A stretch of 64,000 nt of DNA from an uncultured delta proteobacterium (GCA_947085375.1 CAMTWB010000008.1:3507-67506); one strand, 5' to 3'. Positions 186 through 27,740 are shown, counted from the stretch's first letter. The notes: generated by a model from the letters alone, not told the origin. Numbers and translations are program-made.

Positions 186-230
186 ACGTCCCCCTTATTG
201 CGCCCTTATTGCGACGTCCCCCTTATTGCG
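186..230. repeat. Tandem direct repeat ACGTCCCCCTTATTGCG (x2) with an intervening partial copy CCCTTATTGCG
   Basis: The 17-nt unit sits at 186-202 and 214-230, and the 11-nt partial unit at 203-213. The core CCCTTATT is the reverse complement of the AATAA(A)GGG-like core of the 22-69 array. The last unit overlaps the LysR stop codon at 223-225. Confidence 0.6.
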
Positions 231-1116
231 CGAAATTGAAATTCTTCACCTGCCGGGTAAATCTTTGGATCCAGGGGTCGTGACACATTGATTTATGGCA
301 CAACATGGCAATTTCCAGGAAGAGGGGGTCTTTAAACGGAATCACGCCGAATGAATTCTTCTCACGGGCGGAAATAGCGCGTCTTATGACGACCGAAACG
401 CCGCGCCCCTGCAAGACCCATTCTTTAATGAAGTCCGTGCTTTGCACCTCGATCAGGACTGAGACATTGATATTTTTCGCTTTTAAGGAGGAAAGCACAA
501 GTTTTCTGGTTGCAGAACCATCTTCTCTTAGAATGAGCGGATAATTGGCAAGATCATCGATGGTAACGGCATCTTTGCCGGAAAGCCCATGATCCTTAGG
601 CGTTATCACGACCAGTTCCTCCTTGGCCAAAGACAGGGCTTGGAACTTGCTGGTAATCCCGGGATTGGCCACGATGACGATATCCTTGTCCCGCTGGCTC
701 AGTTTCTTTTCCAGCTCTCTTGAACTTCCTACGTCCAGCTGGACAACAACCTGCGGATAGGCACTCTGAAAACTGTTTATTATGTGGGGCATGATAAGAC
801 TCGAATATACGGGGGTGGTGCCGATTCTTAATCGGGGAAAGGGATTGTCTTTACTTGATTTTATAACCTCTTCGAGTTCCGTTGCTTTTTGCAATATGCG
901 GTCGGCATACTTGTAAATTGCCCGGCCTTCTTTGGTTAATTCCACCGCCCCCTTCGCCCGTTTTAAAAGGATACAGCCTACTTGCTCCTCCAGTTGAGCG
1001 ATGTGATTCGAGACGCCGGGCTGGGTCATAAATAGCGTTTCCGCCGCCCGGGAGAAGCTTTTTTGCCGGGCCACTTCACAGAAAACTATGAGTGAATTCA
1101 GGGAATAGCTGAACAT
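223..1116 (-). CDS. LysR-family transcriptional regulator
   Basis: N-terminal HTH typical of LysR (FCEVARQKSFSRAAETLFMTQPGVSNHIAQLE) followed by a substrate-binding domain. It is divergent from the UbiD cluster. Start chosen at ATG 1116 (MFSYSLNSL) rather than ORF-track 1146. Confidence 0.9.
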   Translation of the reverse strand: MFSYSLNSLIVFCEVARQKSFSRAAETLFMTQPGVSNHIAQLEEQVGCILLKRAKGAVELTKEGRAIYKYADRILQKATELEEVIKSSKDNPFPRLRIGTTPVYSSLIMPHIINSFQSAYPQVVVQLDVGSSRELEKKLSQRDKDIVIVANPGITSKFQALSLAKEELVVITPKDHGLSGKDAVTIDDLANYPLILREDGSATRKLVLSSLKAKNINVSVLIEVQSTDFIKEWVLQGRGVSVVIRRAISAREKNSFGVIPFKDPLFLEIAMLCHKSMCHDPWIQRFTRQVKNFNFAQ

Positions 1117-1173
1117 ATTATTTATTCTTATACCCCATAAAATCAAATGATTTGACAGGACGGGATGACAATA

Positions 1174-1191
1174 TTAGCAAAAAAATACTAA
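1174..1191. promoter_or_regulatory. Candidate LysR-type box (TTAG-N10-CTAA dyad) in the divergent intergenic region
   Basis: TTAGCAAAAAAATACTAA lies between the LysR start (1116) and the UbiD-1 start (1227). It fits the loose T-N11-A LysR motif. There is no experimental or comparative support. Confidence 0.25.
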
Positions 1192-1226
1192 CTAAATTGT
1201 AAAGACTGTTTGGAAAGGGGGCTGCC

Positions 1227-2642
1227 ATGGATTTACGGGACTTCATATCATTATGCGAGCAGGAAGGACAATTAAAAAGAATCACGGCGGAAGTGGACTG
1301 GGAGCTGGAGGTCTCTCATATCTGCAAGCTCGTGGAAGAGAAATCCGGCCCGGCACTTTTGTTCGAAAACGTGAAGGGCTATAAAAGTCCGGTCTTGACC
1401 GGCGCCTTCGGTACCACCCGGCGGCTGGCCATGATCCTGGGAAAGAACCCGAACCTGTCCCTGGTTGAGCTGACCAAGGAATGGGTGAGTCTCGCCGTCA
1501 AAGAGGTCATCCCGGCCAGGGAACTCCGGGAGGGGCCCATCTTCGAGAATATCATGGAGGCTGACCAGGTCAACACCTTCGCCTTTCCCTCGCCGAAGTT
1601 TTACGAACTGGACGGCGGGCGCTACTTCGGCACCGCCGTATTCATGGTAATCGAGGATCCCGAGACGGGCGACGTAAATCTTGGCACCTATCGCATGGGC
1701 ATCCTCGACGACAAAACCGTCGGCGTACAGATCCTCAAAGGAAAGAAGGCCGACCGGATCATGAAGAAGTACAAAAAGCAGGGCAGGAAGATGCCCGCCT
1801 GCGCCATTATCGGCGGCGACCCGCTCCACATCTTTGCGAGCGCTGCCACCGTAGCCAAAGCGAAAAGTGGTTACGATGTTGTAGGATCCCTGCGCGGCGC
1901 CCCGGTAGAGGTGGTGCGGAGCCAGCTCTACGGACTTCCCATTCCGGCGGCCGCAGAGATCGTCCTGGAGGGGGAGATCGATCCCGAAAAACTGAGAAAC
2001 GAAGGGCCCTTCGGCGAGTACACGGGATACTACACGGAAGAACTTATTAAGCCTATCCCCAAGCCGGCCCTGGACGTAAAAAGGATCTATTTCAGAAATA
2101 ATCCGATCCTCTGGGAGACCAGCGTGGGCCGGCCTGTTGGGGACCAGCACATGCTCTATGCCTTTGCGCGAAACGCGAGCCTCTGGACCGATCTGACCAA
2201 GATGGAGATCCCGGGCATCAAGTCGGTCTATACGCTGCCGGAAGCCTCGGGACGCTTCTGGGTGGTCGTTTCCGTACAGCAGATGTATCCGGGTCATGCG
2301 GATCAGGCGGCTGCCGCGGTAATTGCCAGCAATACCGGTTCTTACGGGGTCAAGGGCGTCATTATCGTGGATGACGATATCGAAGCCGACGATCTCCCAC
2401 GAGTATGGTGGGCACTGGGGACCCGTTACAATCCGGCCCGGGGTACGCAGATTATCAACAGGGGCCGGGCAACCCCGCTCGATCCGTCCCTGGGAGCGGA
2501 CGAGAACAAGTTCATTACCTCCCGGATCATCATGGATGCCACCATACCCTTTGAGTGGAAAATCAAACCCACGGAGATCAAGCTCACCCAGAGCGTCATG
2601 GCAAGGGTGAAGTCCCGCTGGGCGGAGTACGGCATAGACTGA
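1227..2642 (+). CDS. UbiD-family (de)carboxylase, paralog 1 (PpcA/PpcB-like)
   Basis: 471 aa with UbiD-type motifs VNLGTYR, AIIGGDP and EGPFGEYTGYY. A G-rich RBS lies upstream. Confidence 0.85.
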   Translation: MDLRDFISLCEQEGQLKRITAEVDWELEVSHICKLVEEKSGPALLFENVKGYKSPVLTGAFGTTRRLAMILGKNPNLSLVELTKEWVSLAVKEVIPARELREGPIFENIMEADQVNTFAFPSPKFYELDGGRYFGTAVFMVIEDPETGDVNLGTYRMGILDDKTVGVQILKGKKADRIMKKYKKQGRKMPACAIIGGDPLHIFASAATVAKAKSGYDVVGSLRGAPVEVVRSQLYGLPIPAAAEIVLEGEIDPEKLRNEGPFGEYTGYYTEELIKPIPKPALDVKRIYFRNNPILWETSVGRPVGDQHMLYAFARNASLWTDLTKMEIPGIKSVYTLPEASGRFWVVVSVQQMYPGHADQAAAAVIASNTGSYGVKGVIIVDDDIEADDLPRVWWALGTRYNPARGTQIINRGRATPLDPSLGADENKFITSRIIMDATIPFEWKIKPTEIKLTQSVMARVKSRWAEYGID

Positions 2643-2658
2643 CGAAAAGGAGGTTAGC

Positions 2659-3216
2659 ATGGCATTCCCGAAGGACCTGACAATAGCACAGGAAAGGGCA
2701 GGGAAGGTGAGGCTTTTTGCCCATGACATCCACGGGGTTTTGACCCCCAACCAGGTCATGAGCGATGTGGAGGGAAACAGGCAATACGCCTTCTGGCACA
2801 TGGACGGTTTTGCCGACCTTTCCCTTTCGGCCAATGAGATCAAGGTGGTCTACCTGGACAGCACCTCGATTGACGGGGAAGGACTCTACCGGGCGAAGGA
2901 ACTGAAGCTTGACAAGCTCTACTTCCGGGTGGAGGACAAACTGGCGAAACTGGAGGAACTGAGAGCGGAGTTTGGGATCAAGGATGAGGAAATCGGCTAT
3001 CTGGGCTGTGAACTCACCGATATACCCGTGATGAGACGGGTCGGCTTCGCCGTGGCCGTGGCCGATGCGATCCCCGAGGTGAAAGAGATCGCCCATTACA
3101 TTACCAATGCCCCCGGGGGGCGAGGGGCCATGAGAGAAACCTGTGAATTTATCCTGCGGGCGATGGGCAGATGGGATCTCTGGGTGGAGAAGGTCACCAA
3201 GATGGGGTACAAATAG
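2659..3216 (+). CDS. KdsC-like HAD-superfamily protein, paralog 1 (size and family of the phenylphosphate carboxylase delta subunit PpcD)
   Basis: 185 aa. HAD motif I-like HDIHGVLT and a C-terminal region typical of the KdsC subfamily (GCELTDIPVMRRVGFAVAVADA ... GGRGAMRE). AAGGAGG RBS lies 7 nt upstream. Confidence 0.75.
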   Translation: MAFPKDLTIAQERAGKVRLFAHDIHGVLTPNQVMSDVEGNRQYAFWHMDGFADLSLSANEIKVVYLDSTSIDGEGLYRAKELKLDKLYFRVEDKLAKLEELRAEFGIKDEEIGYLGCELTDIPVMRRVGFAVAVADAIPEVKEIAHYITNAPGGRGAMRETCEFILRAMGRWDLWVEKVTKMGYK

Positions 3217-3220
3217 CTAA

Positions 3221-3359
3221 TGCCAAAAGTTTCAGGAAAAGGCGCCGCAGGACGGGTGTCCACATCCACCGTAGAACAGGCGACTCGCCTGTCGGAACCT
3301 TCCTAAAGTAGTGGCGGGTTTCAAGCCCGCTCTTACATCTATAAACTTTTGACAATACG
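3221..3359. repeat. TIR-bounded intergenic repeat (member or relative of the GTAAAAAGT...ACTTTTTAC family)
   Basis: Left end TGCCAAAAGTTT (3221-3232) is the reverse complement, with 1 mismatch, of right end AAACTTTTGACA (3343-3354). There is an internal GC hairpin gcgggtttcaagcccgc. It starts 5 nt after the HAD-1 stop. Confidence 0.5.
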
Positions 3360-3369
3360 CGTAAGGCAA

Positions 3370-3741
3370 ATGAATTCTATGAGTGCCTTTAAAGTCAATG
3401 TCATAGCAGTAAACCCTAAGGGTACGGAGAAGGTCACGCCGCCCATTGAGGTTCTGGTGGATACAGGAGCCGAACTGACTTGGTTACCGAGAGATCTTCT
3501 CCTGCAGGTCGCCATAGAACCTGTCCGGAAGAGGGCCTTTGTTACAGCAACCAAGCAGATCGTCCAAAGGGAGGTAGGATATGCAATCCTTCGTTCAGAA
3601 GGATATGAGACCATTGACGAGGTGGTTTTTGCAGAGTCCGGAGATATGAACCTTCTTGGTGTCCGTACGATTGAAGGGTTCGGGGTGATGATTGACAACA
3701 TCGGCCATCGGTTTGTCGCAATCACCACCCTTGCAGTTTAG
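3370..3741 (+). CDS. Retropepsin-like (clan AA) aspartyl protease family protein
   Basis: Catalytic D-T-G-A motif (LVDTGAELTWLP), size ~125 aa, and a C-terminal IEGFGVMID segment typical of bacterial retropepsin-like proteins. Start uncertain (ATG 3370 or 3379; the track start 3349 is the TTG of a repeat end). Confidence 0.65.
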   Translation: MNSMSAFKVNVIAVNPKGTEKVTPPIEVLVDTGAELTWLPRDLLLQVAIEPVRKRAFVTATKQIVQREVGYAILRSEGYETIDEVVFAESGDMNLLGVRTIEGFGVMIDNIGHRFVAITTLAV

Positions 3742-3886
3742 GGGGCCAAAGCCTTAACAGTTTCAAAGAGGGACAGAATATTTTATCGAAAGGTGAAATC
3801 ATTTTTAAAATCGAATTGACGGAGCCGGCAATGTCTGATTTGGAAGGTATTTGAGAGTATATTGGAAGGGACTCGGAATATTTTAA

Positions 3887-3903
3887 AAACTTTTGACATT
3901 ACG
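3887..3903. repeat. Solo copy of the repeat end AAACTTTTGACATTACG
   Basis: 16 of 17 nt are identical to 3343-3359 (AAACTTTTGACAATACG), in the same orientation. It lies 24 nt upstream of the HAD-2 start. Confidence 0.5.
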
Positions 3904-3926
3904 ACAAATAATGGAGAGGAGGGGAC

Positions 3927-4439
3927 ATGGAAAACGAGGAAGCCATTGAAAAGGCCAAAAAGGTAAAATTCGTCATCCTCGATATTCACGGGGTCTTGAC
4001 GGACAATACCCTCTATTACACCCAGGCCGGGGTCAAATCGGAATGCTTTTCTCTCCATGACCGGCTGGGCTGCAAATCCCTCATGGAAGCGGGCATCGGG
4101 GTTGCCTTTCTCACGAGCAAGGTGGGAAGAGACGTGGAACAGATGGCAAAGGTTTACGGAGTACCGGCGGATAAGGTTTGGGGAACTTCGGCGAAAATGA
4201 CCAAGCTGGATGAGTTCGAACGGGAATCGGGCTATACGGACCAGGATATCTGCTACGTAGGGGATGAGATGATCGATCTTGGCATCATGAAAAGGGTTTT
4301 CTTTTCCGTGGCCCCGGCCGACGGTTCCCATGAAGCGAAGGCGATTGCCGATTACATCACGGCGGCAGGCGGCGGCAAGGGTGTGGTGAGGGAGCTCGCG
4401 GAATTCATCCTGCGGGCGCAGGGGAAATGGCATAAATAG
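3927..4439 (+). CDS. KdsC-like HAD-superfamily protein, paralog 2 (PpcD-like)
   Basis: 170 aa with LDIHGVLTDN, VGDEMIDLGIMKRV and GGGKGVVRE, paralogous to 2659-3216. GGAGAGGAGGGG RBS. Confidence 0.75.
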   Translation: MENEEAIEKAKKVKFVILDIHGVLTDNTLYYTQAGVKSECFSLHDRLGCKSLMEAGIGVAFLTSKVGRDVEQMAKVYGVPADKVWGTSAKMTKLDEFERESGYTDQDICYVGDEMIDLGIMKRVFFSVAPADGSHEAKAIADYITAAGGGKGVVRELAEFILRAQGKWHK

Positions 4440-4496
4440 GGACAGCGCCCTATTACTGTAAGCGATCAACGTGATAATAGGGCGCTGTCCCTATTT
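4434..4496. terminator. Perfect 22-bp inverted repeat (stem-loop) overlapping the HAD-2 stop codon
   Basis: AAATAGGGACAGCGCCCTATTA (4434-4455) and its exact reverse complement TAATAGGGCGCTGTCCCTATTT (4475-4496), separated by a 19-nt loop. No clear U-tract follows, so a role as terminator, RNA-stability element or protein-binding dyad is open. Confidence 0.4.
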
Positions 4497-4526
4497 ACAC
4501 AAAATAAAGAAAGGAGAAAAGATCAA

Positions 4527-5984
4527 ATGCCCTACAAATTTTACAAAGACAACCGGGAATTTATGAAGGCCCTTGAGGCAAACAATGAACTTGCCACCAT
4601 TGAGCAGGAGGTGGACTGGGACCTCGAGATGGGCGCCATTGTGAGAAGGGTCTGTGAAAGGAAGTCAGCCGCCCCCTATTTTAAAAAGATTAAGGACTAC
4701 CCGGGATTCGAAGCCTTCGGCGCCCCCATGTCTACTTGGAGAAGACTGAATATTGCCATGGGTTTAGATGCTGACACTCCTATTTCAAAGCTTCAAGATG
4801 AATATGTCAGGCGGATAACGGAGCCGCGGATAAAGGCAGTTTTGGTAGACAAGAAGGATGCCCCCTGCAAAGAAAACGTAATACATGAAGATGATGTTGA
4901 CCTATTAAATCTTCCTGCGCCAATGGTCCACGGGGGAGATGGCGGCCGATACCTCTGCACCTGGCATATGGTAGTGTCCAGAGCCCTTAAAAACTACGAC
5001 GATGTTAATTGGGGAATGTATCGGCAGATGATATTTGATGAAAAGACCCTGGTAGGGCCAATCTTGCCCTTTTCCGATACGGGGAAGATGTTTTACGAAC
5101 AATATGCACCCCTGAACAAGCCTATGCCTGCCGCTATAGTCATTGGAATGGATCCGCTTGCAGGAATTGCCGCCTGTGCTCCTGCAGCATATCCAGAAAG
5201 CGAATATACCGGTCAATTAATGGGCGCTCCGATAGAACTGGTAAAATGTGAGACCGTGGATTTAGAGGTCCCCGCCCACGCCGAAATCATAATAGAAGGG
5301 GAAATGATTCCAAATGTCGGACTGGAAGAGGCTCCATTTGGAGAATATACCGGTTATAGAACCTCACCAAGGGCAAATCGCACGGTTTTTAAAGCAAAGT
5401 TAATCACACACAGGAATAAGCCCATTCTTACCGTTTCTAATATGGGAGTCCCAACAGATGAAGGGCAGCTCCTCCGTTCATTCTCATTGGCGCTTGAAAT
5501 GAGAAAGTTATTGGAAAGCCAGCTGCTTCCTATCACCGGCATCTACATGCTTCCGGAATCGACTCACCACTTGGTAGTGGTAGGGGTAAGGCCCGCTTAC
5601 CCTGGCATAGCCCAGCAGATTGCCCACATTGTATTCGGCAGTAAGCTTGCCCCTTGGTTTCACATGGTAATGGTGGTAGATGACAAGACAGACATCTACA
5701 ATATAAATGAGTTAGTCCATGATTTCTGCACCAAGCTCCATCCGACCCAGGGGATCCATAAGTATGAAAGGCATGTCGGAACCCCTCTTTATCCCTTCGC
5801 TCATCCTATCGATAGGAAATATGGAAGGGGAGACAAGGTGCTATTTGATTGCCTCTTCCCGCTGGATTGGCCAAAGGCTGAATTGCCAATAAAGGTTAGT
5901 TTTAGCAATAAGGATATATATCCTGAAGAAATTCAGAAAAAGGTTTTACACAATTGGAAGGCATATGGATTTAAGGAAGATTAG
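4527..5984 (+). CDS. UbiD-family (de)carboxylase, paralog 2
   Basis: 485 aa with VNWGMYR, IVIGMDP, PESEYTGQLMGAPIELVKCETVDLEVPAHAEIIIEGE and EAPFGEYTGY. AAGGAGA RBS. Confidence 0.85.
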   Translation: MPYKFYKDNREFMKALEANNELATIEQEVDWDLEMGAIVRRVCERKSAAPYFKKIKDYPGFEAFGAPMSTWRRLNIAMGLDADTPISKLQDEYVRRITEPRIKAVLVDKKDAPCKENVIHEDDVDLLNLPAPMVHGGDGGRYLCTWHMVVSRALKNYDDVNWGMYRQMIFDEKTLVGPILPFSDTGKMFYEQYAPLNKPMPAAIVIGMDPLAGIAACAPAAYPESEYTGQLMGAPIELVKCETVDLEVPAHAEIIIEGEMIPNVGLEEAPFGEYTGYRTSPRANRTVFKAKLITHRNKPILTVSNMGVPTDEGQLLRSFSLALEMRKLLESQLLPITGIYMLPESTHHLVVVGVRPAYPGIAQQIAHIVFGSKLAPWFHMVMVVDDKTDIYNINELVHDFCTKLHPTQGIHKYERHVGTPLYPFAHPIDRKYGRGDKVLFDCLFPLDWPKAELPIKVSFSNKDIYPEEIQKKVLHNWKAYGFKED

Positions 5985-6090
5985 ATTTATCCAGGCTGCG
6001 GATAAGAGCCTTCAAGCGTAAAAAGGTTAAATCTTTACCAAATCCGAGGCAAAATGAATCAGCCTCACTAAAATTGAGGAGGTAAACACG

Positions 6091-6399
6091 ATGCAGAAGA
6101 AATGGGATACCTTCATCTTGACCAAGTTGAGCGAGGTGGTTGAGGATAAAGAGGAACTACGGACTATACGAGACATAACTCCAGGAGTGGGAACCCGTAA
6201 ATATAGATGTATGCTTGTTAAGGCTCTCATTTCAAAAAAACCGGACAAATACCCGGATCAGCTTCAGGTAAGGTTAGGCAGAGGGCAGTTAACTCCTCAT
6301 GTATGGTCTATCAAGATAACTGAAGAGATAGACTTGGCCAAGGGGATACCCACTAAGCCGTATCATATGTCAGGAGGAATTGCTTTGGAAGAAGACTAA
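6091..6399 (+). CDS. Small protein (102 aa), candidate small subunit of the carboxylase complex (position and size analogous to PpcC; homology unverified)
   Basis: Strong RBS (GAGGAGG 7 nt upstream). Paralogous to the next ORF (RDITPG..KYPDQLQVRLGRGQL versus RDVEPG..KYPDILWIRLGRGQL). Confidence 0.6.
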   Translation: MQKKWDTFILTKLSEVVEDKEELRTIRDITPGVGTRKYRCMLVKALISKKPDKYPDQLQVRLGRGQLTPHVWSIKITEEIDLAKGIPTKPYHMSGGIALEED

Positions 6400-6441
6400 A
6401 CCTTCTCCGATTCCAATGATTTAGAGGAAGATGTAGAGACG

Positions 6442-6633
6442 GTGGGCGTAATCAGGGACGTGGAACCGGGCTGGAAGAAGTACCGGTCCACCTACGCCCG
6501 CTATCTGGTCTCGAAGGATGCCGTGAAATATCCCGACATCCTCTGGATAAGACTAGGCCGGGGCCAGTTGGTCGCTACGCCCTGTTCGGCTAAGATTCTG
6601 GAGCTGATCAATGTCATCCCCCAAGGCATGTGA
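6442..6633 (+). CDS. Small protein (63 aa from GTG), paralog of 6091-6399
   Basis: Shares the KYPD..RLGRGQL core with the upstream ORF. It is in the same reading frame, separated only by TAA (6397-6399) and 14 sense codons. The start codon is uncertain. Confidence 0.5.
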   Translation: MGVIRDVEPGWKKYRSTYARYLVSKDAVKYPDILWIRLGRGQLVATPCSAKILELINVIPQGM

Positions 6634-7966
6634 GACGATTGATTCCCTGGGAGAATATCTGGCGTTCATGGAGGCCCGGGGGTGGCTCCTGACCATCCGT
6701 GAGGAGGTCGGGAGGAAGGATATCCCGGCCTTCATGGAGCGACTGTCGGGCCTGCGAAAGGCACTGCTCTTTGAGGCGGTGGCAGGTTACAACTGCCGGC
6801 TGGCGGCGAATATCGTCCCCTCCCACGAGGTCTTCAAGGTGCTTTTCGGCACGGAGAATCCCTATGACTACTTTCTCCAGGGGATACAGAAAACGGCGGG
6901 AAAGATCCTCCTTTCCGAACGGAAACTCGAAACGACAAGGGTGGCAGATCGGGATCTGACCGATTTTCTCCCCATCCTGACCCATTATGAAAAGGATTCG
7001 GCGCCCTTTATCACCACGGGCATTGTCTCCTCGCCCGATCCGGAGTCGGGCGTGGTGGGCCGGGGAATTCACCGGCTGGAATACCGGGGAGGGAATCGGC
7101 TCGGCCTGGCCCTGCTCAACCCTCCCCTTACCACGATTCGTGATAAATACCGGGCGCGGGGAGAGGCGATGCCGGTGGCCATCACCATCGGGGTTGATCC
7201 GGTGATCTTCCTCTCGATGGCCCTCAAGTCGCCTCCCGGAACGGACAAGCTGGAGGTAGCGGGAGGCCTGAAGGGAAGGGGGGTGGAGGTGATCGGCGCC
7301 TGTAATTCCTCTGCCGATGTCCCGGCCGCAGGCGAGTTCCTCCTGGAGGGATGCCTCGATGAGGGCAAAAGAAAGATAGACGGCCCCTTAGGGGAAATCA
7401 GCGGCTATTATCTGACCTTCGAGGAGTCCCCCACGGTCCTGGTGGACCGGCTGTCGCACCGGGAGAACCCCATCTACCATGCCCTCCTGCCCACGGCGCT
7501 GGAGGCCGATGCCTACCTGACCTTCGTCAGCCGGGCCCATCTGGAAGAAAACGCGAAGCGGCTTTTCCCCTTTATTGTGAACATTGCCTATATTCCCGGG
7601 ACCTTTGGCTCATCCCTCGTGGTTTGCGTCAAGACGGCGGAGAAATTCCGGATCAGAAATCTCCTCCTCTTTCTCCTTTCCTTTCCCATGATCAAGAAGG
7701 CCGTCATTGTGGATGATGATGTGAACCCGGAGGATTTGCGGGATGTGGAATGGGCCGTGGTGACCCGGTGCAAGGCCGACGAGGATATTATCATCCTGAA
7801 TCGTCTCCAGGGGCAGCCCATCGATCCCCTGGCCCAAGACACCTACGGGGTGACCAAGATCGGCATCAATGCCACGGTTGCGGGCAAAAGAATCGCCGAT
7901 CGGGTCAAGGTGACGGGCGGAAATACGGAGCGGATTGAGCGGATCATCTGCTCTCTGGGTTTTTGA
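6611..7966 (+). CDS. UbiD-family protein, paralog 3 (divergent)
   Basis: 451 aa with ITIGVDP, GPLGEISGYY and VIVDDDVNPEDLRDVEWAV. The NxGxYR motif is replaced by GRGIHR. It overlaps the preceding ORF by 23 nt. Confidence 0.8.
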   Translation: MSSPKACETIDSLGEYLAFMEARGWLLTIREEVGRKDIPAFMERLSGLRKALLFEAVAGYNCRLAANIVPSHEVFKVLFGTENPYDYFLQGIQKTAGKILLSERKLETTRVADRDLTDFLPILTHYEKDSAPFITTGIVSSPDPESGVVGRGIHRLEYRGGNRLGLALLNPPLTTIRDKYRARGEAMPVAITIGVDPVIFLSMALKSPPGTDKLEVAGGLKGRGVEVIGACNSSADVPAAGEFLLEGCLDEGKRKIDGPLGEISGYYLTFEESPTVLVDRLSHRENPIYHALLPTALEADAYLTFVSRAHLEENAKRLFPFIVNIAYIPGTFGSSLVVCVKTAEKFRIRNLLLFLLSFPMIKKAVIVDDDVNPEDLRDVEWAVVTRCKADEDIIILNRLQGQPIDPLAQDTYGVTKIGINATVAGKRIADRVKVTGGNTERIERIICSLGF

Positions 7967-8031
7967 TTGATCCGATGGATCGGTCGGATAGGTCGGATAA
8001 ACCCTAAACCAAATTAACAAAGGAGCATGTC

Positions 8032-9369
8032 ATGCCGCATCACAAGACATCCTGCTGGAATCCCCTCTTGGAGACCTTGCCCCGGGAGAGGCTCCGGGCG
8101 TTGCAACTGAAGAAATTTCAGCGGATTTTTGCCTGGGCCTATGATAACTCGCCCTTCTATAGAAGGCTCTATCAGGAGGCAGGTATAGAACCGGGGGATA
8201 TCAAGAACTTCGAGGACATCAAACGGGTTCCCAAGACGGACAAGGGGATGTTGAGAGAGGTTCAGAGCCGTCCCCCCTTTCCCTACGGGGATATCCTCGC
8301 GGTGCCCCTTGCGGAGGTCACCGCCTTTCGTCAAACCAGCGGCACCACAGGAACGCCCGTTTATCAAGCCGATACCTGGCAGGACTGGGAATGGTGGGCA
8401 GAGTGCTGGGCCTATATCCTTTACGCCCAGGGTTACAGAGACACCGACCGGGTTTTCATTCCCTTTGGCTACAATATTTTTGTGGCCTTCTGGGCCGGGC
8501 ATTACGGCGCAGAAAAACTGGGCTGCGAGGTCGTTCCCGGCGGGGTTTTGGACACCCGGGCGCGGATCATGAAGATGCAGGAACTAAAATGCACCGCCTT
8601 CATGGCCACGCCAACCTATGTCCTGGGGATGGCCGATGCGGCGAGGGAAATGGGCCTCGATCCAGCGAAGGATTTGTTCATCGAGAGGATCACCTGCGCC
8701 GGCGAACCGGGCGCCAGCATTCCCGCCACGAAACGGCGGATGGAGGAGGTCTGGGGCTGCCGGGTGTTCGATCATATCGGCGCCACGGAAATAGGGGCCT
8801 GGAGCTATGCCTGTCTCCAGCAGGAAACGGACCTCCACGTCAATGAGGCCTTCTTTCTGGTAGAAATCGAGGACGAACAAACCGGAGAGATTAGGGAAAC
8901 GCCGGCTAACCCGGGCAAAATGATCATTACCGCCTTCGACCGGCTGGGGAAGCCCTGTATCCGTTTTGATTCCAAGGATGTGATCCGCTGGGCGGATGGC
9001 GTCTGCGCCTGCGGCCGCACCTTCCGCTCCATCGAAGGGGGCGTAGTGGGCCGGGCGGATGACATCACCAAGGTTAAGGGGGTCCTCCTGGCCCCGACGG
9101 CAATCGAAGAGGTGGTGCGCGGCTTTGCCGCACTGGCCGATGAATATGAGGTACTGGTAACGAAAAAGGCGGACATAGACGACATTCTGCTTAAAGTGGA
9201 AATCAACCCCGGTTTTGAAGGCCAGGAAGAACGAATCCTCGCTCAACTGAAGGACCAACTCCGGGTGGTGACGAATCTTGGTTATCGGGTAGAGGTCCAT
9301 CCCCACGGGAGTCTCCCCCGTTACGAGGTAAAGGCCAAACGGTTCAAAGATTTGAGAAAACAGGAGTAA
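8032..9369 (+). CDS. Phenylacetate-CoA ligase (PaaK)-like adenylate-forming enzyme / aryl-acid CoA ligase
   Basis: 445 aa with the AMP-binding motif FRQTSGTTGTPV and PaaK/F390-synthetase family architecture. AAGGAG RBS. Confidence 0.8.
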   Translation: MPHHKTSCWNPLLETLPRERLRALQLKKFQRIFAWAYDNSPFYRRLYQEAGIEPGDIKNFEDIKRVPKTDKGMLREVQSRPPFPYGDILAVPLAEVTAFRQTSGTTGTPVYQADTWQDWEWWAECWAYILYAQGYRDTDRVFIPFGYNIFVAFWAGHYGAEKLGCEVVPGGVLDTRARIMKMQELKCTAFMATPTYVLGMADAAREMGLDPAKDLFIERITCAGEPGASIPATKRRMEEVWGCRVFDHIGATEIGAWSYACLQQETDLHVNEAFFLVEIEDEQTGEIRETPANPGKMIITAFDRLGKPCIRFDSKDVIRWADGVCACGRTFRSIEGGVVGRADDITKVKGVLLAPTAIEEVVRGFAALADEYEVLVTKKADIDDILLKVEINPGFEGQEERILAQLKDQLRVVTNLGYRVEVHPHGSLPRYEVKAKRFKDLRKQE

Positions 9370-9372
9370 CCC

Positions 9373-9555
9373 TTGGAAAATCAGGAAACGATCATCCAAC
9401 TGGACGAAAAAATCACCAGGCTGAGACAGGCCGCCCTGGATGTCCTGGCCTCCGGCGGCGAAATTGAGGCGGTAAAACGCAATATTACAAAAATCCTGGC
9501 CAATACCAGGATGCTCGAACTCAATGTCTCGGATGTTAGAGAGGCTGAGAGGTAG
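9373..9555 (+). CDS. Small hypothetical helical protein (60 aa, TTG start)
   Basis: The ORF begins 3 nt after the ligase stop. No recognisable motif. Confidence 0.35.
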   Translation: MENQETIIQLDEKITRLRQAALDVLASGGEIEAVKRNITKILANTRMLELNVSDVREAER

Positions 9556-9557: not shown

Positions 9558-9607
9558 AGGCTGAAGGCTATTAGGCTAAAAGACTTTCAGCCTTCAGTCT
9601 TCAGCCT
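9558..9607. terminator. Stem-loop between convergent genes (candidate bidirectional terminator)
   Basis: AGGCTGAAGGCT (9558-9569) can pair with AGTCTTCAGCCT (9596-9607; one G-T). It lies between the + strand ORF end (9555) and overlaps the Nudix stop (9594). Confidence 0.3.
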
Positions 9608-10160
9608 TCCGTCTCGTTCCCTCGCCCTGCTGCATGAAAAGGTGGTAGAAGGCGGCGATTACGAGGGCATTGGTGATGGCCCCCTCCCTGATGAGTTGCG
9701 GTATCTCCGCCAGCGGTTTTAAAATCACCGCAATATCCTCCCGTTCATCCTGGTCCTGTCCGCCGGCAAGATAGACGTCCCGGGCCAGATAGGTGAAGCA
9801 GCGGTTATTGAGGATCGCCGGATTGGGATGAACGCTTCCCAGACAAAGCAGGTCGTGACATTGATAGCCCGTTTCTTCCCGCAGTTCCCGCCGGGCCGCC
9901 TCCAAGGGCGGATCGTGATCCGTAAGCCCCCCGGGAATCTCCAGGGTTAAATCCCGGATGCCATGCCGGTACTGCTGCACGAGGACCACCTCATTTTGGG
10001 GGGTAAGCGGAATCACATTGACCCAGGTTGCTGATTCCAGGATGTAGAACTCGTGGGACTCTCCGGTCCGGGGAGAAGCGGCCCGGTCGGTGCGGATCCG
10101 GAAAATCCGGTAGGACTTGTCCAGGCAACTGGAAATAACCCTCCAGGGCTTAGGCGGCAT
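9594..10160 (-). CDS. Nudix hydrolase (ADP-ribose pyrophosphatase/NudF-like)
   Basis: Nudix box GGLTDHDPPLEAARRELREETGY (GX5EX7REUXEEXGU). Confidence 0.85.
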   Translation of the reverse strand: MPPKPWRVISSCLDKSYRIFRIRTDRAASPRTGESHEFYILESATWVNVIPLTPQNEVVLVQQYRHGIRDLTLEIPGGLTDHDPPLEAARRELREETGYQCHDLLCLGSVHPNPAILNNRCFTYLARDVYLAGGQDQDEREDIAVILKPLAEIPQLIREGAITNALVIAAFYHLFMQQGEGTRRKAED

Positions 10161-10261: not shown

Positions 10262-11245
10262 TTACAGGCCAGCCCGGTACAACATTTCCCTTATCCTTTC
10301 CCGGACCGTCTCTACCATCTCCGGATGAAGAACAGGGCTTACGGGGCGCCAATTTTGCCAGGGTCCCAGGATATCACGGTAAAGGACCGCACAGGCCCGG
10401 GATATTTCCACCCTTCCCTGCGGGTCAACAACCGTTATACATTCCCCTAACGCCTGCACAAGACGATCCCTTTCCCCTTCGTCCTCCGTGTGGAATACGA
10501 CCACCCGGGTCGGGGCATCGGCCAGCGAGGCTCCAAACTTGCCGTACACATGTCCCCCGGGAAACCGTTTTTCATACTCGGCAAGGAGAGAAAGGCAATC
10601 ATCAAGGCTGGAGACGACGGCGGCGACCTTCCAGCAATTATAGGCCGAATTCAGGGTGATGACGTCGGACCCGGCCCGCAACTGCCCGTAGAGGTTCTGA
10701 ATGCAGGGCAGGCATTTCCCGTAGATGTTTTCCTTGTTTTGCTTCAGGGCGGGGTCGCTCTCAAAACTGACCCAAAAACTGCCGCCCTCCCGGTAGGGTA
10801 TCTTTCCCACGTATATCTGCCAGGGTGTATGACTGTTACTTCCGGATAAGGCGTAAGAAATGGTCAACAGGTCTCCATCATAGAGTCCCAGGGTTTCTTT
10901 GATATGAACCGGGGCCAGTATTTCCACGATATTTTCCCCGTGGACGTTTACCTCACCGGCGGGGATGATTAAGGCCCCCGCAATATCGCCCAGCCTGATC
11001 CCGATCGCTCTGGCCCGGCAATAATCTGGGTCGGGGGGGATCAGTTCCACCCCGTCCTCCTCTCGCAGACGGCGGAGAGAGGAATGAGAGTCCTTCGCTA
11101 CCTCCAGGTTAAGCGTCCCCGGGTAAGGCTTGAAACCCAGCTTCTCCCCGCATTGCCTTTGCACCCAATCCAGTTGCGTGAAAAAGGTCGCCTTACCCGT
11201 TCCGCTTTTTATACGGCCGGTGATCTGTAAACAATCATGTTCCAT
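10262..11245 (-). CDS. Archaeal-type (CTP-dependent, MJ0056/RibK-like) riboflavin kinase domain fused to a ~190-aa uncharacterised C-terminal domain
   Basis: The N-terminal ~135 aa carry GRIKSGTGKATFF, GFKPYPGTLNLEV and ENIVEILAPVHIKETLGLYDGD, matching the pattern I recall for MJ0056. The C-terminal half has no motif I recognise. Confidence 0.65.
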   Translation of the reverse strand: MEHDCLQITGRIKSGTGKATFFTQLDWVQRQCGEKLGFKPYPGTLNLEVAKDSHSSLRRLREEDGVELIPPDPDYCRARAIGIRLGDIAGALIIPAGEVNVHGENIVEILAPVHIKETLGLYDGDLLTISYALSGSNSHTPWQIYVGKIPYREGGSFWVSFESDPALKQNKENIYGKCLPCIQNLYGQLRAGSDVITLNSAYNCWKVAAVVSSLDDCLSLLAEYEKRFPGGHVYGKFGASLADAPTRVVVFHTEDEGERDRLVQALGECITVVDPQGRVEISRACAVLYRDILGPWQNWRPVSPVLHPEMVETVRERIREMLYRAGL

Positions 11246-11262: not shown

Positions 11263-11895
11263 TTACCGAAACCCTTGCGGCGTCATCTTACTTCGCTTTC
11301 CCGGCTTCCGGAGATTCTGCGCCCGCTGGCCATCCTCCCTTGTCCATCTTTGGAAAATGGGAAGTTTGATCCCGAAAAAATCCAGGGCCCGGCCGACCGT
11401 CTGATTCACAATATCTTCTATGGTCCGGGGTCGCCCGTAAAAACTGGGAATGGCCGGCATGATGAGGGCGCCCATCTCCGCGACCTGGAGCATCAGACGG
11501 AGGTGTCCCTTATGAAAGGGCGTTTCCCTGACCATCAGGAGGAGCCTTCTTTGTTCCTTCAGGGTTACATCGGCCGCGCGGATCAGCAGATTTACATTGA
11601 AAGAATTGGCCACGCCGGAGAGGGTTTTTATCGAGCAGGGGACCACGGCCATGCCGATGGTTTCAAAGGAGCCGCTGGCAATCGCCGCCCCGGTATTGTC
11701 AATGTCGTGGACGACATCGGCCAGACCCGTAACATAGTCAAGGGTATAATCCGTCTCCAGCATCAAGGTTTTCTCCGCCGCGTCCGAGATGACCAGATGC
11801 GTCTCGATATCGGTTTCCCTCAAGACCTCCAGCATCCGGACCCCGTAAACCGCCCCTGTTGCCCCCGATATGCCTATGACCAGTCTCTGCTTCAT
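11263..11895 (-). CDS. ubiX: UbiX flavin prenyltransferase (prFMN synthase)
   Basis: MKQRLVIGISGATGAVYG..., PCSIKTLSG and LKEQRRLLLMVRETP are typical of UbiX/Pad1. Start set at ATG 11895, preceded by AAGGGGAGGA. Confidence 0.9.
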   Translation of the reverse strand: MKQRLVIGISGATGAVYGVRMLEVLRETDIETHLVISDAAEKTLMLETDYTLDYVTGLADVVHDIDNTGAAIASGSFETIGMAVVPCSIKTLSGVANSFNVNLLIRAADVTLKEQRRLLLMVRETPFHKGHLRLMLQVAEMGALIMPAIPSFYGRPRTIEDIVNQTVGRALDFFGIKLPIFQRWTREDGQRAQNLRKPGKRSKMTPQGFR

Positions 11896-11915
11896 GTTCC
11901 TCCCCTTTAGATCAA

Positions 11916-12250
11916 TTATCTTCCCTTCAAGGAATTCCTGATAAGTTGAACGGGATGGGTTACCGGCAGACCCGTGAGATGGTGGATCTGCATCCGGCAA
12001 CCCTCGCAATCGGAGACCACCAAATCGGGATTAAGGTCCCTGATGGCCGCAGCCAGATCCGCGCCTATGGCCTGAGAAATGTCGTATTTCTCCTTCTTGA
12101 ACCCAAAGGCCCCGGCCAGACCGCAACAGTCCGCTTTGATCAGCTCCACCTCCAAGCGGGGGATCAGTTTCAGAAAATCCAGCGCCGGCAGGGAGATGCC
12201 GAGCACCTGAGATGACAGGGGGCAAAATAGGCCACCTTCCGGGGCAGGGG
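11916..12250 (-). pseudogene. Truncated, frameshifted remnant of a CCG-domain (HdrD/GlcF/LutA-like) Fe-S oxidoreductase
   Basis: The C-terminal CCG motif is intact (IKADCCGLAGAFGFKKEKY ... DCEGCRMQI). The upstream CCG-type segment KVAYFAPCHL sits in a different frame (shift near 12205-12215). Nothing resembling the N-terminal 4Fe-4S ferredoxin part lies upstream. Confidence 0.6.
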
Positions 12251-12372
12251 GAAAGCCTTTCCGCCAGGGCCAGGCCCTGGGGCTCCTTGTTTAAAAAATT
12301 GATAAGAACTTCCTTTTTCGTTGTAGGGGCGTACGAGTCTATGGTGACTATTTTTGATTGTCAAGGGATATT

Positions 12373-12414
12373 TTGCTGCTAACACCCCGGACATATCTAT
12401 TTGCTGCTAACACC
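12373..12414. repeat. 14-bp direct repeat TTGCTGCTAACACC (x2, 28-bp period)
   Basis: Copies at 12373-12386 and 12401-12414, both preceded by TAT(T)T, in non-coding DNA upstream of the FGGY kinase gene. Confidence 0.6.
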
Positions 12415-12621
12415 GAAAATGACGGGGGAAAGGCAAGAGTGGGGGATAGGGCGAATAGGGTCAGGCTTGCTTTGTTGTCTTTTGGTCTGTATAAGCTTGT
12501 TTATGGCTCGCAAACAGCGAATACACTACCCTGCTGGCGCTCTTTACCATGTCATTCTGCAAGAGCTTACGATGAAACCAGTTATGCAAGCCTGACCCTA
12601 TTATTCTTTGAGGGAGAGATC

Positions 12622-14229
12622 ATGTCGGCAATCGGCGAGAAATATATCCTGGCCCTGGACCTGGGCACCTCGGGACCCAAGGCAGCCCTGGTTGCCATCT
12701 GGGGCGAGATGGTCGCTACTTCCTTTGAGAAGAACGAGGTCATCCTCTTGCCCGACGGGGGCGCGGAGCAATGTCCTGATCAATGGTGGGCCGCGATTGT
12801 TCAGGCCATCCGCAAGTTGCTCGCAAAGGGGATTGTCCCGGCAGACGAAATAGTGGCGATCTGCTGCACCGGCCAGTGGTCGGGAACCGTGGCCGTGGAC
12901 AGGGACGGCGCGCCCCTGATGAATGCCATCATCTGGCTGGATTCCCGGGGACACCGCTATATTCGGGGCATCACCGGGGGGTTCTGCAAAATCGAGGGCT
13001 ACGGCCTCTTGAGGCTGCTGCGCTGGCTCCGGCTCACCGGCGGGATTCCCAGCCACTCAGGCAAGGATCCCCTCGCCCATATCCTGTTTATCAAATACGA
13101 ACACCCCGATATTTACCGTAGGACCTACAAGTTCCTCGAACCGAAGGATTATCTCAACCTGCGACTGACGGGCAGATTCGCCGCCTCTATCGATTCCATC
13201 GCGCTCCATTGGCTCACGGATAACCGGAATCTCCACCGGGTGGACTACGACCGGCGGTTGCTCAGGATGTCCGGCATGGAACGGGCCAAGTTTCCTGATC
13301 TTAAAAAGGCCGTTGAAGTGCTGGGACCAATAAAAAAGGAGGTTGCCCGGGAACTGGGGCTCAGGGAGGATGTCCAGGTGGTGACGGGAACGCCGGATGT
13401 CCACTCCGCCGCCATCGGCTCCGGGGCCGTGGGTGATTTTCAGGGCCATCTTTACATAGGAACATCATCCTGGCTCACTTGCCATGTACCATTTAAAAAG
13501 ACCGATATCTGGCACAATATGGCCTCCCTGCCCTCGGCGATTCCGGGGAAATATCTTATCGCCAACGAGCAGGAAATTGCCGGCGGCTATCTTCGTTTTC
13601 TCAGCGATACCCTCCTGCACCCCAAAGGCCATTTATCTGAAGAAGGGGACAGCGCCAATATTTTTCAGACCTTCGATAGAATCGTGGAAAAGACGCCCGC
13701 AGGCAGCCACAAGGTGATTGTCACCCCCTGGCTCTACGGGGAGCGGACCCCCGTGGAGAACCATTCCCTCCGCTCCGGCATTCACAACCTGTCCCTCTCC
13801 ACCAGTCGGGAGGATTTGATCAGGGCAACCTTTGAAGGGGTGGCGTACAATTCCCGGTGGCTGCTGGGTCATGTGGAAAAGTTTATCCGGCGCCCGCTGG
13901 ACCCGATCCACATGGTTGGCGGCGGGGCCAACTCGGAGATCTGGTGTCAGATCCATGCCGATGTCTTTAACCGAACCGTCAGGCAGGTAAAGGATCCCCT
14001 TTGGGCCAACCTGAGAGGAGCAGCCTTTCTCGCCGCAGTATCCCTGGGCTATCTCCGCTTCGAGGATATTCCGGCCCGCGTGAAAATCGCCAATACCTTT
14101 TCACCCAACCAGGATAATCGCCGGATATACGATGAATTATTTCGGGAGTTTTTACATATCTACCAGTGCAACAAGGACATTTACAGACGGCTCAATAGCA
14201 CGCAAGAGACTTTCTCGCCCTGCCCTTAA
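12622..14229 (+). CDS. FGGY-family carbohydrate kinase (xylulokinase/glycerol kinase-like)
   Basis: YILALDLGTSGPKAALV, IIWLDSRG, and the C-terminal GGGANSEIWCQIHADV. Start set at ATG 12622 after GAGGGAGAG; the 88-codon N-terminal extension in the track is non-coding-looking. Confidence 0.85.
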   Translation: MSAIGEKYILALDLGTSGPKAALVAIWGEMVATSFEKNEVILLPDGGAEQCPDQWWAAIVQAIRKLLAKGIVPADEIVAICCTGQWSGTVAVDRDGAPLMNAIIWLDSRGHRYIRGITGGFCKIEGYGLLRLLRWLRLTGGIPSHSGKDPLAHILFIKYEHPDIYRRTYKFLEPKDYLNLRLTGRFAASIDSIALHWLTDNRNLHRVDYDRRLLRMSGMERAKFPDLKKAVEVLGPIKKEVARELGLREDVQVVTGTPDVHSAAIGSGAVGDFQGHLYIGTSSWLTCHVPFKKTDIWHNMASLPSAIPGKYLIANEQEIAGGYLRFLSDTLLHPKGHLSEEGDSANIFQTFDRIVEKTPAGSHKVIVTPWLYGERTPVENHSLRSGIHNLSLSTSREDLIRATFEGVAYNSRWLLGHVEKFIRRPLDPIHMVGGGANSEIWCQIHADVFNRTVRQVKDPLWANLRGAAFLAAVSLGYLRFEDIPARVKIANTFSPNQDNRRIYDELFREFLHIYQCNKDIYRRLNSTQETFSPCP

Positions 14230-14262
14230 AGTACGGTGAAACGCTCTGCCCGGGGGAATGAC

Positions 14263-22892: not shown

Positions 22893-23800
22893 TGTTTCGC
22901 CTTCTTCAGTAATCCCCAGAGGTGCTTGGCCTCCGGGCGGTGGGCGAGCGCCTCGCCAACCAGCCTTTCCCAACCCTCATAATCCGCCTTGTCCTCGTAT
23001 ATCTTGAAAATCGTCCGGGTGACAAAATGGTCTTCGGGATTCTGGACAAAAACGCCCTTCAGGTGGATGGCGGCCCGCTGTCTGTCGCCCATCTTATAAT
23101 AGGCATAGCCCAGCATCTTGCGGGTAAACGGATGATCCTTAATGGCAAGGAGCCTGGTATAAATCTCGACCGCCTGGTCGAATCTCTCCATTTTTTTATA
23201 GAGATCGGCCAGATAAAGATGAAGATCGTAATCCGCGGCATATTCGGGCAGGGCCATGATTGTCTCGATCTCGATTGCCGCCTGGGCTGGACTCTTGGCA
23301 GCGAATTTCTGCTGGTAATAGGTAAATCTGCTGGTGCCGCCAACCGTCTCTTCGCCGGCCAGGGCGATCTTCTTCAGAGGTTCGCTTTGGGGAAATCTCG
23401 CCAGCGCCTGCCTGAGGACATCCTTCCCCTTTTCTGCTCCCAGGGACCTTGCCGCTGCTTCCACCAGGAAGACAAAAAAAACCTCATTGCCCACCCCCCA
23501 AGAGAAGATGGCGTTGATTAACTTTTCCAGGTCATCCTTGGCCTTCTCCCGCTGAAGAATCAGGACGTAAGTGCGGAGGAAAAAGCTGTTGTTTTTAAGG
23601 AGTTCCACCCGGCCTTCCGCCTTAGTTCTCGCTTCCTTTATCTTCCCGAGCTGAAAAAGCAGATGGACCTCGTTGCCTAAAAGAAAGAGGTTGGTCGGAT
23701 AGATGGTCAGGGCCTCCTTCAGCGCCTCATAGGCCCCGCGGTAGTCCTTCTTTCTCTCCAGTGCGATGATTAGGTCAACGTATGCTCGGGCGTCGGTCAT
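22865..23800 (-). CDS. TPR-repeat protein
   Basis: 311 aa of repeated 34-aa-like A/Y/L helical hairpins (e.g. YRGAYEALKEALTIYP, DQAVEIYTRLLAIKD, GDRQRAAIHLKGVFVQNP). Its 3' end overlaps the ATPase-PglZ start by 28 nt. Confidence 0.75.
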   Translation of the reverse strand: MTDARAYVDLIIALERKKDYRGAYEALKEALTIYPTNLFLLGNEVHLLFQLGKIKEARTKAEGRVELLKNNSFFLRTYVLILQREKAKDDLEKLINAIFSWGVGNEVFFVFLVEAAARSLGAEKGKDVLRQALARFPQSEPLKKIALAGEETVGGTSRFTYYQQKFAAKSPAQAAIEIETIMALPEYAADYDLHLYLADLYKKMERFDQAVEIYTRLLAIKDHPFTRKMLGYAYYKMGDRQRAAIHLKGVFVQNPEDHFVTRTIFKIYEDKADYEGWERLVGEALAHRPEAKHLWGLLKKAKQWQKSSATS

Positions 23801-27699: not shown

Positions 27700-27740
27700 G
27701 GTGGCGGCAACCTGCTTTCGCAAACAATGTTGATACGAGA

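Follow-up and report, generated by a model that had tools for sequence, protein, structure and literature searches.

We analysed a 64,000-nucleotide stretch of DNA from an uncultured delta proteobacterium (GCA_947085375.1, CAMTWB010000008.1:3507-67506), referred to below as the window, with a focus on a cluster of UbiD-family genes near its start. The cluster combines genes for three UbiD paralogs, two KdsC-like HAD proteins, and a coenzyme A (CoA) ligase with two small open reading frames (ORFs), and it is accompanied by a LysR-family regulator gene and a gene for the flavin prenyltransferase UbiX. We consider it likely that this region, in a Smithellaceae-like genome, encodes a phenylphosphate carboxylase of the Syntrophorhabdus type together with cofactor-supply genes and a downstream CoA ligase. 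Genes were checked using an ORF list and two profile libraries (Pfam and NCBIfam). All ORFs predicted in an earlier inspection of the DNA (the sequence-only reading) were present at the positions it gave, including the divergent LysR gene, the nearby ubiX, and the PaaK-like ligase gene downstream of the third UbiD gene. The region contains the following features:

223-1146, minus strand: LysR-family regulator (PF00126 and PF03466), divergent from ppcB; DNA 91% identical to L086, a sister metagenome-assembled genome (MAG) of the Smithellaceae.
1174-1191, in the 80-nt intergenic region between the LysR gene and ppcB: candidate regulator site, the dyad TTAG-N10-CTAA, read directly from the sequence.
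1227-2642, plus strand: ppcB, beta subunit (UbiD-1); TIGR02724 at 669 bits against a cut-off of 469.
2659-3216, plus strand: HAD-1, an extra KdsC-like delta paralog (H1 type), below the phenyl_P_delta and KdsC cut-offs.
3227-3900: insertion of ~680 bp with no counterpart in L086.
3349-3741, plus strand: retropepsin-like ORF (clan AA aspartic protease) within the insertion, with weak matches below the cut-offs.
3927-4439, plus strand: HAD-2, PpcD-equivalent delta subunit (H2 type); top match phenyl_P_delta, below its cut-off.
4433-4497: perfect 23-nt inverted repeat with a 19-nt spacer, at the left edge of an apparently replaced segment.
4527-5984, plus strand: ppcA, alpha subunit (UbiD-2), a putative foreign (xenologous) copy; TIGR02723 at 646.5 bits against a cut-off of 564.6.
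6091-6399, plus strand: ppcC, gamma subunit, 102 aa; PF09662 at 61.2 bits; would have come along with the foreign ppcA.
6400-6633 (63-aa ORF at 6442-6633), plus strand: putative remnant of the native ppcC; PF09662 at 36.3 bits; homologous to the gamma genes of L086 and of a second sister MAG, L004.
6611-7966, plus strand: third UbiD (UbiD-3), Thauera ORF8 type, corresponding to the UbiD-like member of the PpcX/PpcY pair and grouping with the third UbiD of Thauera in a neighbour-joining tree.
8032-9369, plus strand: PaaK-type aryl-CoA ligase (PF00501 and PF14535).
9373-9555, plus strand: 60-aa ORF after the ligase gene, 91% identical in L004, where its position is kept; no significant family match in the profile searches.
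9594-10160, minus strand: Nudix hydrolase (PF00293).
10262-11245, minus strand: CTP-dependent riboflavin-kinase-like (RFK-like) domain (aa 1-130; PF01982) fused to a four-Cys domain (aa ~136-327).
11263-12009, minus strand: UbiX flavin prenyltransferase, the synthase of prenylated flavin mononucleotide (prFMN); NF004685 at 253 bits against a cut-off of 188; 57% identical to the UbiX of the Thauera cluster.

The last three genes form an operon convergent to the ppc genes. This operon, the retropepsin-like ORF, and the mosaic base composition described below had escaped the sequence-only reading. To place the three UbiD paralogs, each of which contains three Pfam UbiD domains, we used a comparison set of 80 loci from reference genomes, retrieved by PpcA alignment. 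The 209 UbiD proteins extracted from these loci were used for a neighbour-joining tree with 50 bootstraps. UbiD-1 (60% identical to PpcB of Thauera aromatica) fell among the 50 members of the PpcB clade, which 41 of the 50 bootstraps recovered. UbiD-2 (57% identical to PpcA of T. aromatica) joined the Thauera protein in a clade with 58 members, present in 34 of the 50 bootstraps. Both clades consist entirely of sequences encoded in ppc loci. Together with the equivalog cut-offs passed by both proteins, these placements bear out the sequence-only reading in its view of the cluster as phenylphosphate-carboxylase-like.

The same tree does not support the likeness to benzene and naphthalene carboxylase loci that had also been proposed. 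UbiDs from N47, NaphS2, Thermincola, and TRIP (L059, L061, L062, and L079) all lie outside the smallest clade holding the PpcA proteins of the window and of Thauera, and the main UbiDs of the window group with PpcA and PpcB instead, which led us to reject a benzene or naphthalene carboxylase. Nor are the UbiDs simple hydroxyarylic-acid decarboxylases, which the sequence-only reading had named as a placement that would refute it: the three proteins scored 293, 245, and 189 bits with the VdcC model NF041204, all below its cut-off of 650. By these profile and tree placements, the cluster belongs to the known phenylphosphate carboxylase family and is not a new kind of carboxylase.

The paralogs differ at positions that matter for the cofactor. 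We take N168, H191, and E233 of Fdc1 (A. niger numbering) to be its Mn2+ ligands and R173, E277, and E282 to be catalytic; in the Fdc1 sequence of our alignment, the named residues fell at the expected numbers. At positions 168, 173, 191, 233, 277, and 282, the PpcA clade has N, R, D, E, E, and E. The PpcB clade has N, R, K or R, then G, D, E or Q, followed by E and E. PpcA thus appears to be the only one of the Ppc UbiDs to keep the full cofactor/metal and catalytic residue set.

Gene order across the compared loci agrees with these assignments. The loci show two layouts, one of which, found in Betaproteobacteria, some Firmicutes, and some other lineages, has a single HAD gene. The other has the order ppcB-H1-H2-ppcA-ppcC-third UbiD and was found in 19 loci, usually with the third UbiD, where the contig reaches that far, and with a divergent LysR gene, which has the same position in most Syntrophorhabdus-type loci. 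Hosts of the two-HAD layout are Syntrophorhabdus, other Thermodesulfobacteriota, Desulfosarcina, L086, and the window itself. In L086 the order is LysR, PpcB, HAD, HAD, PpcA (481 aa), gamma (84 aa), third UbiD, and ligase. The position of the gamma gene after ppcA is conserved across ppc loci, and that of the HAD genes between ppcB and ppcA is conserved in the 19 loci; by this synteny, Syntrophorhabdus-type ppc loci characteristically carry a pair of HAD genes.

The phenol cluster of T. aromatica (L080) consists, in this order, of PpsA-PpsB-PpsC-PpcB-PpcD-PpcA-PpcC, a third UbiD, UbiX, an RFK-like protein, a Nudix hydrolase, and a PaaK-like ligase. The genes beyond pps and ppc have been published as ORF7-14, with ORF8 being UbiD-like and ORF14 PaaK-like (PMC6114531). 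Because the Thauera cluster carries all of them, we regard the third UbiD, UbiX, and the ligase as standard equipment. The sequence-only reading had described the cluster of the window as an expanded parts list. Little of that expansion is left once the accessory genes are seen to be shared with Thauera, the two HAD genes to be conserved in 19 loci, and the second gamma gene to be an apparent remnant. Homologues of the alpha, beta, gamma, and delta subunits are present and orthologous, their layout is conserved across many genomes, and the genes are under purifying selection, with ratios of nonsynonymous to synonymous substitution rates (dN/dS) of 0.05-0.25 against sister genomes for all intact genes (PpcB against L086, 0.046).

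Both small ORFs scored above the gathering score of the Pfam family Phenyl_P_gamma (PF09662; 25 bits), which supports the view that they are PpcC-like. The NCBIfam gamma model TIGR02725, with its cut-off of 135.6, matched them at only 60.2 and 37.9 bits. The 102-aa protein is 42% identical to PpcC of Thauera and 86% identical to the gamma protein of the metagenomic contig L005.

The HAD proteins were likewise matched by the expected model below its cut-off. With phenyl_P_delta (TIGR02726; cut-off 282), HAD-1 scored 106.3 bits and HAD-2 117.7 bits. Neither is a bona fide KdsC (KDO-8-phosphate phosphatase), an assignment that the sequence-only reading had named as one that would count against its view: HAD-1 and HAD-2 scored 107 and 114 bits with NF007019 (cut-off 208), and the HAD proteins scored 94.8 and 100.1 bits with TIGR01670 (cut-off 106.95). 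HAD-2 is 39.5% identical to Thauera PpcD and has the motifs DIHG (motif I) and GDE (motif IV). Proteins of the H1 type have HD[IV]HG and G[CAS]E at these motifs. H1 and H2 are old paralogs; identity is ~38% between the two types and ~71% among proteins of one type. Thauera-type PpcD has D-V-D-G as motif I and GDD as motif IV. Outside the Thauera-type, mostly betaproteobacterial clusters, all delta subunits among the 71 HAD proteins from the loci have D-[VI]-H-G and GDE, so that the acid/base residue at Asp+2 is His in place of Asp. Both HAD-1 and HAD-2 retain the motif I nucleophile, an Asp. Although HAD-1 has lost the first Asp of motif IV, its kept nucleophile and its dN/dS of 0.055 (0.071 for HAD-2) do not support its being a dead enzyme. 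Judged from the alignments, the His at Asp+2, the GDE or G[CAS]E form of motif IV, and the residue patterns of the UbiDs fall outside the standard model.

The ligase belongs to the same superfamily as phenylacetate-CoA ligase, and its score with the PaaK model TIGR02155 (239 bits, far below the cut-off of 646) led us to reject PaaK itself as its identity. It is 38% identical to the ligase of the Thauera cluster, has homologues in other ppc loci, and has a dN/dS of 0.11. By analogy it would be a 4-hydroxybenzoate-CoA ligase. The gene cluster of D. anilini has been described with 4-hydroxybenzoyl-CoA ligase genes, and a homologue of the PaaK-like ORF14 sits in it (PMC6114531).

In agreement with the sequence-only reading, which found no such gene in the cluster, no phenylphosphate synthase homologue was detected in the 64-kb window, where Thauera PpsA and PpsB used as queries matched only a dikinase, and weakly. 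This protein has 914 aa, is encoded at 31643-34387, and scores as a genuine pyruvate,phosphate dikinase (1283 bits with TIGR01828, cut-off 843). As had been noted for the gene near 31.7 kb, it is normal and full-length, and we rejected it as a stand-in phenylphosphate synthase. Eight Syntrophorhabdus-type ppc loci carry ppsA and ppsB no more than 10 kb away: L010, L015, L017, L019, L023, L024, L029, and L073 (the sequences of L019 and L029 end before ppcB and the HAD genes). No pps genes were found in the full 10-kb flanks of L002 and L035 or in the available flanks of L009, L011, L022, L027, and L057, each of which has at least one shorter flank. Because several related loci also show no pps genes in their available flanks, the lack of linkage in the window is not unusual.

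Several points weigh against a phenylphosphate carboxylase. With no phenylphosphate synthase gene in the window, the source of phenylphosphate is one that we infer. Both HAD proteins and both gamma ORFs fall below their NCBIfam equivalog cut-offs, and the HAD proteins have His for Asp at the Asp+2 position. The ligase is only 38% identical to its Thauera counterpart, and its substrate, too, is one that we infer. Finally, the trees are neighbour-joining only and were built from sequences retrieved by PpcA similarity.

The same facts (the missing pps genes, the delta and gamma scores, and the altered Asp+2 residue) could be read as signs that the complex carboxylates another activated aromatic, such as phenylphosphoamidate made from aniline, or phosphorylated cresol, catechol, or hydroquinone, and D. 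anilini does re-use Ppc-type subunits for aniline (PMC7500099). However, the aniline system of D. anilini has two beta-type subunits, not the set of alpha, beta, gamma, and delta (PMC7500099). The alpha and beta subunits of the window pass their equivalog cut-offs and sit inside the PpcA and PpcB clades, and both the His variant and the two-HAD layout also occur in Syntrophorhabdus loci that carry ppsAB, in a genus known to degrade phenol (PMC5946492). We therefore judge a different activated substrate to be unlikely. This is in effect the idea of the sequence-only reading, which had left open which aromatic or heteroaromatic compound serves as substrate. Its caveat about the missing ppsAB was fair; ppsAB are unlinked in several related loci too.

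UbiD-3 grouped with its Thauera counterpart, but no more than 19 of the 50 bootstraps returned this group with exactly the same members. It is 35% identical to the Thauera copy and 90% identical to the Smithellaceae copy, with a dN/dS of 0.25. At the three Mn2+-ligand positions it has G, P, and K, and a pairwise alignment with HmfF independently gave the same three replacements. This furandicarboxylate decarboxylase (6H6V, 199 bits) is the solved structure closest to UbiD-3 and lies outside the third-UbiD clade. Within that clade, which includes the Thauera, N47, and NaphS2 copies, N168 is mostly replaced by G or A and H191 by P, R173 is kept, E233 is an invariant K, E277 is D or E, and E282 is E. 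The canonical metal site was absent from all members examined (55/55). The third UbiD adjoins UbiX in 47 of 57 copies. The family (members noted: L080, L059, L061, and L003) also occurs in the naphthalene-carboxylase loci of N47 and NaphS2, and in a Syntrophorhabdus locus it stands beside UbiX, RibBA, and an RFK-like gene without ppcA or ppcB.

These features bear on a second alternative, in which the locus encodes an ATP-free, reversible 4-hydroxybenzoate decarboxylase/phenol carboxylase with the third UbiD and UbiX as the catalyst. PpcX and PpcY of Syntrophorhabdus have been the subject of published speculation along these lines (PMC5946492), HmfF is a true decarboxylase, and the window has no pps genes. 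Yet prFMN is anchored by three canonical Mn2+ ligands, and these are lacking in UbiD-3 and its whole clade. UbiX, moreover, is now known as a cofactor-making enzyme, not a decarboxylase subunit (PMC10865409). The same third UbiD is found in clusters that also bear ppsABC, and the conserved alpha, beta, gamma, and delta genes under purifying selection would be left unexplained. An ATP-free enzyme of this kind is thus very unlikely. We also rejected UbiD-3 and the ligase as a phthalate-type CoA-ester decarboxylase module, since no phthaloyl-CoA decarboxylase match was found at E<=1e-10 and the position of UbiD-3 after ppcC is kept in ppc clusters that have no adjacent ligase gene.

The oxidative maturation of prFMN in strict anaerobes has yet to be explained (PMC10865409). 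Because its metal site is absent, it adjoins UbiX in most copies, and it occurs in loci without ppcA or ppcB, the third UbiD could be a handler of prenylated flavin, serving delivery or O2-free maturation for anaerobic UbiD-type carboxylases, and not a carboxylase itself; we offer this as a doubtful idea. Such a handler might act together with the four-Cys protein fused to the RFK-like domain. The four-Cys domain (window 10262-10840, minus strand; ~190 aa) belongs to an unannotated family with 260 matches, usually a stand-alone protein of ~191 aa in Desulfobacterota, in UbiD, ppc, and RFK neighbourhoods. Fusion to the RFK-like domain was seen in Smithellaceae only. C45 and C48 (of a CLPC motif), C71, C152, and H119 are invariant in the family, a pattern that suggests a metal or Fe-S site. 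The domain had no Pfam match at E<=10, and its AlphaFold model (mean predicted local distance difference test score, pLDDT, 82.7) had no Foldseek match in the PDB at E<=1e-3. The Nudix gene is also present in Thauera-type clusters. In another genome with a ppc cluster of the same type (L002), a gene for an LpdD-type prFMNH2 chaperone (PF21758) lies a few genes downstream, at 13897-14325; there is none near the cluster of the window.

Comparison of the DNA with L086 (blastn, sliding identity) divided the cluster into segments of different similarity:

229-3226: LysR, ppcB, and HAD-1; 91% identity to L086.
3227-3900: insertion; no counterpart in L086.
3901-4500: HAD-2; ~90% identity to L086.
4500-6408: ppcA and the 102-aa ORF; 57-75% identity to L086 or no counterpart.
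6409-9375: gamma remnant, UbiD-3, and ligase; 91-93% identity to L086.

HAD-2 is thus native by its ~90% DNA identity to L086. PpcA of the window, by comparison, is only 66% identical to that of L004, and its DNA is ~60-70% identical to L086. The protein is 92% identical to that of L005 and 88% identical to that of the Syntrophorhabdus MAG L006, and the divergent segment as a whole is 90-95% identical to L005, which carries a HAD gene, ppcA, and the 102-aa gamma gene. The guanine-plus-cytosine (GC) content is 0.47 for ppcA and 0.44 for the 102-aa ORF, whereas the remaining ppc genes and the ligase gene range from 0.54 to 0.59. The drop in identity to L086, the closeness to L005 and Syntrophorhabdus, and the low GC together argue that a foreign ppcA-ppcC cassette (~4500-6408) replaced the native ppcA. 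The foreign PpcA has a dN/dS of 0.095 against L005, and the cassette has values of 0.10-0.13 against its relatives. Two observations concern inverted repeats near ppcA: the 23-nt arms in the window lie at 4433-4455 and 4475-4497, the first beginning inside the HAD-2 stop codon at the left cassette junction, and a similar element seemingly lies upstream of ppcA in L004 (minus-strand blastn match).

This replacement would also account for the second small ORF, since the incoming cassette would have clipped the native ppcC. Homology of the window to the gamma genes of L086 (84 aa) and L004 (87 aa) starts at 6409 in blastn, and the match at the protein level starts directly after the stop codon of the 102-aa ORF. 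The 63-aa ORF follows in frame right behind that stop codon, with the start and about 5-10 codons lost. Its dN/dS is 0.34, over only 74 codons. By its junction and homology, then, the 63-aa ORF is a remnant of the native ppcC left by recombination and not a maintained paralog.

The gap between the two HAD genes is due to the ~680-bp insertion. Its ends are marked by 15-nt inverted repeats (3218-3232 and 3887-3901) and 20-nt direct repeats (3340-3359 and 3884-3903), each with TTGACA; a small mobile element or a duplication of promoter sequence may lie behind this arrangement. The retropepsin-like ORF within it had weak matches to PF13975 (23.6 bits) and TIGR03698 (41.4 bits), both below the cut-offs, and a DTGA motif in its translation. 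No counterpart was found in any other compared ppc locus, and the ORF is probably outside the pathway. An insertion between the HAD genes, a truncated ppcC, a patchwork ppcA, and no pps genes nearby might together be taken for a cluster that is decaying and no longer works. This is extremely improbable, given that the eight main ORFs are all intact, that dN/dS is low both against sister genomes and for the foreign cassette against its relatives, and that a complete 102-aa ppcC came with the cassette.

For the phenylphosphate carboxylase that we favour, the most likely function, by analogy with the characterised enzyme, is the conversion of phenylphosphate and CO2 to 4-hydroxybenzoate and then to its CoA ester. 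Phenylphosphate would be made by a phenylphosphate synthase encoded elsewhere and would bind to the HAD delta subunit or subunits. The phosphoryl group would be transferred to delta and hydrolysed, with the phenolate staying enzyme-bound. A UbiD-type core, with PpcB and PpcC as partners of PpcA, would then carboxylate the phenolate at the para position with CO2, and the PaaK-type ligase would convert the resulting 4-hydroxybenzoate to 4-hydroxybenzoyl-CoA. The operon of UbiX, the RFK-like protein, and the Nudix hydrolase would supply the cofactor: UbiX would make prenylated FMN, for which the RFK-like protein plausibly provides FMN and the Nudix hydrolase dimethylallyl monophosphate. The third UbiD would be an accessory protein, and the LysR protein would regulate the operon.

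With a complete set of phenylphosphate carboxylase genes in a Smithellaceae-like genome, a role of this lineage in degrading phenol without oxygen is possible, and the putative replacement suggests that ppcA and ppcC can pass together, as a cassette, from one lineage to another. The PDB copy that we searched held no solved structure of a phenylphosphate carboxylase. Testable points are the full cofactor/metal site predicted in alpha only, the His-type delta of strict anaerobes that is duplicated in one lineage, and the third UbiD, which by its residues would be unable to bind metal in the usual way.

The remainder of the window contains cydABDC, genes of the lipopolysaccharide core, and a cell-wall/division cluster. 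Individual genes that we noted are as follows:

12358-14229, plus strand: FGGY-family sugar kinase with an N-terminal extension of ~95 aa, divergent from ubiX.
14236-15792, plus strand: MfnA-like decarboxylase dependent on pyridoxal phosphate (518 aa), right after the FGGY kinase gene.
18264-22973, minus strand: 1569-aa protein with a partial DUF6079 match and a weak AAA_16 match.
25230-31096, plus strand: cytochrome bd oxidase genes cydAB and cydDC, with a gene for an Rrf2-family regulator upstream at 24759-25211.
45163-48132, plus strand: 989-aa protein with two Mur-ligase domain sets, an apparent MurE-MurF fusion in the cell-wall/division cluster.

In a presumably strictly anaerobic syntroph, cydABDC probably serve oxygen defence.

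Among known systems, VdcBCD and LpdBCD resemble the cluster in that UbiX and a small protein accompany a member of the UbiD family. They differ in that the UbiDs of the window stay far from the VdcC cut-off (189-293 bits against 650), and PpcC has no sequence relationship to VdcD and LpdD (PMC8379154). The putative naphthalene and benzene carboxylase loci of the N47, NaphS2, Thermincola, and strain BF type are likewise multi-UbiD clusters with UbiX, and those of N47 and NaphS2 share a member of the third-UbiD family with the window. Their main UbiDs, however, lie outside the PpcA and PpcB clades; no HAD or PpcB matches were found in loci of this type, and gamma-like matches were found only in some related ones.

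The PpcABCD cluster of Thauera and Aromatoleum shares with the window its accessory genes and its subunit families, namely a UbiD-type pair, a gamma of ~10 kDa, and a KdsC-like delta. It differs in having one delta where the window has two paralogs, and its delta has D-V-D-G and GDD where the window has D-I-H-G as motif I and GDE or GCE as motif IV. In the window, moreover, ppsABC are not adjacent, the regulator is of the LysR type, a separate convergent operon encodes UbiX together with the RFK-like protein and the Nudix hydrolase, and protein identities to the Thauera system are only 35-60%.

A comparison of Pps-Ppc operons from Syntrophorhabdus, a phenol degrader, is already in the literature (Ju et al. 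2018, PMC5946492). Relative to these and to related Thermodesulfobacteriota MAGs, the window has no ppsAB within reach, a Smithellaceae-like host, a ligase gene directly after the third UbiD gene, a ppcC remnant, the ~680-bp insertion, and the RFK-like/four-Cys fusion, but it shares with them the same order of a divergent LysR gene, ppcB, HAD, HAD, ppcA, ppcC, and third UbiD.

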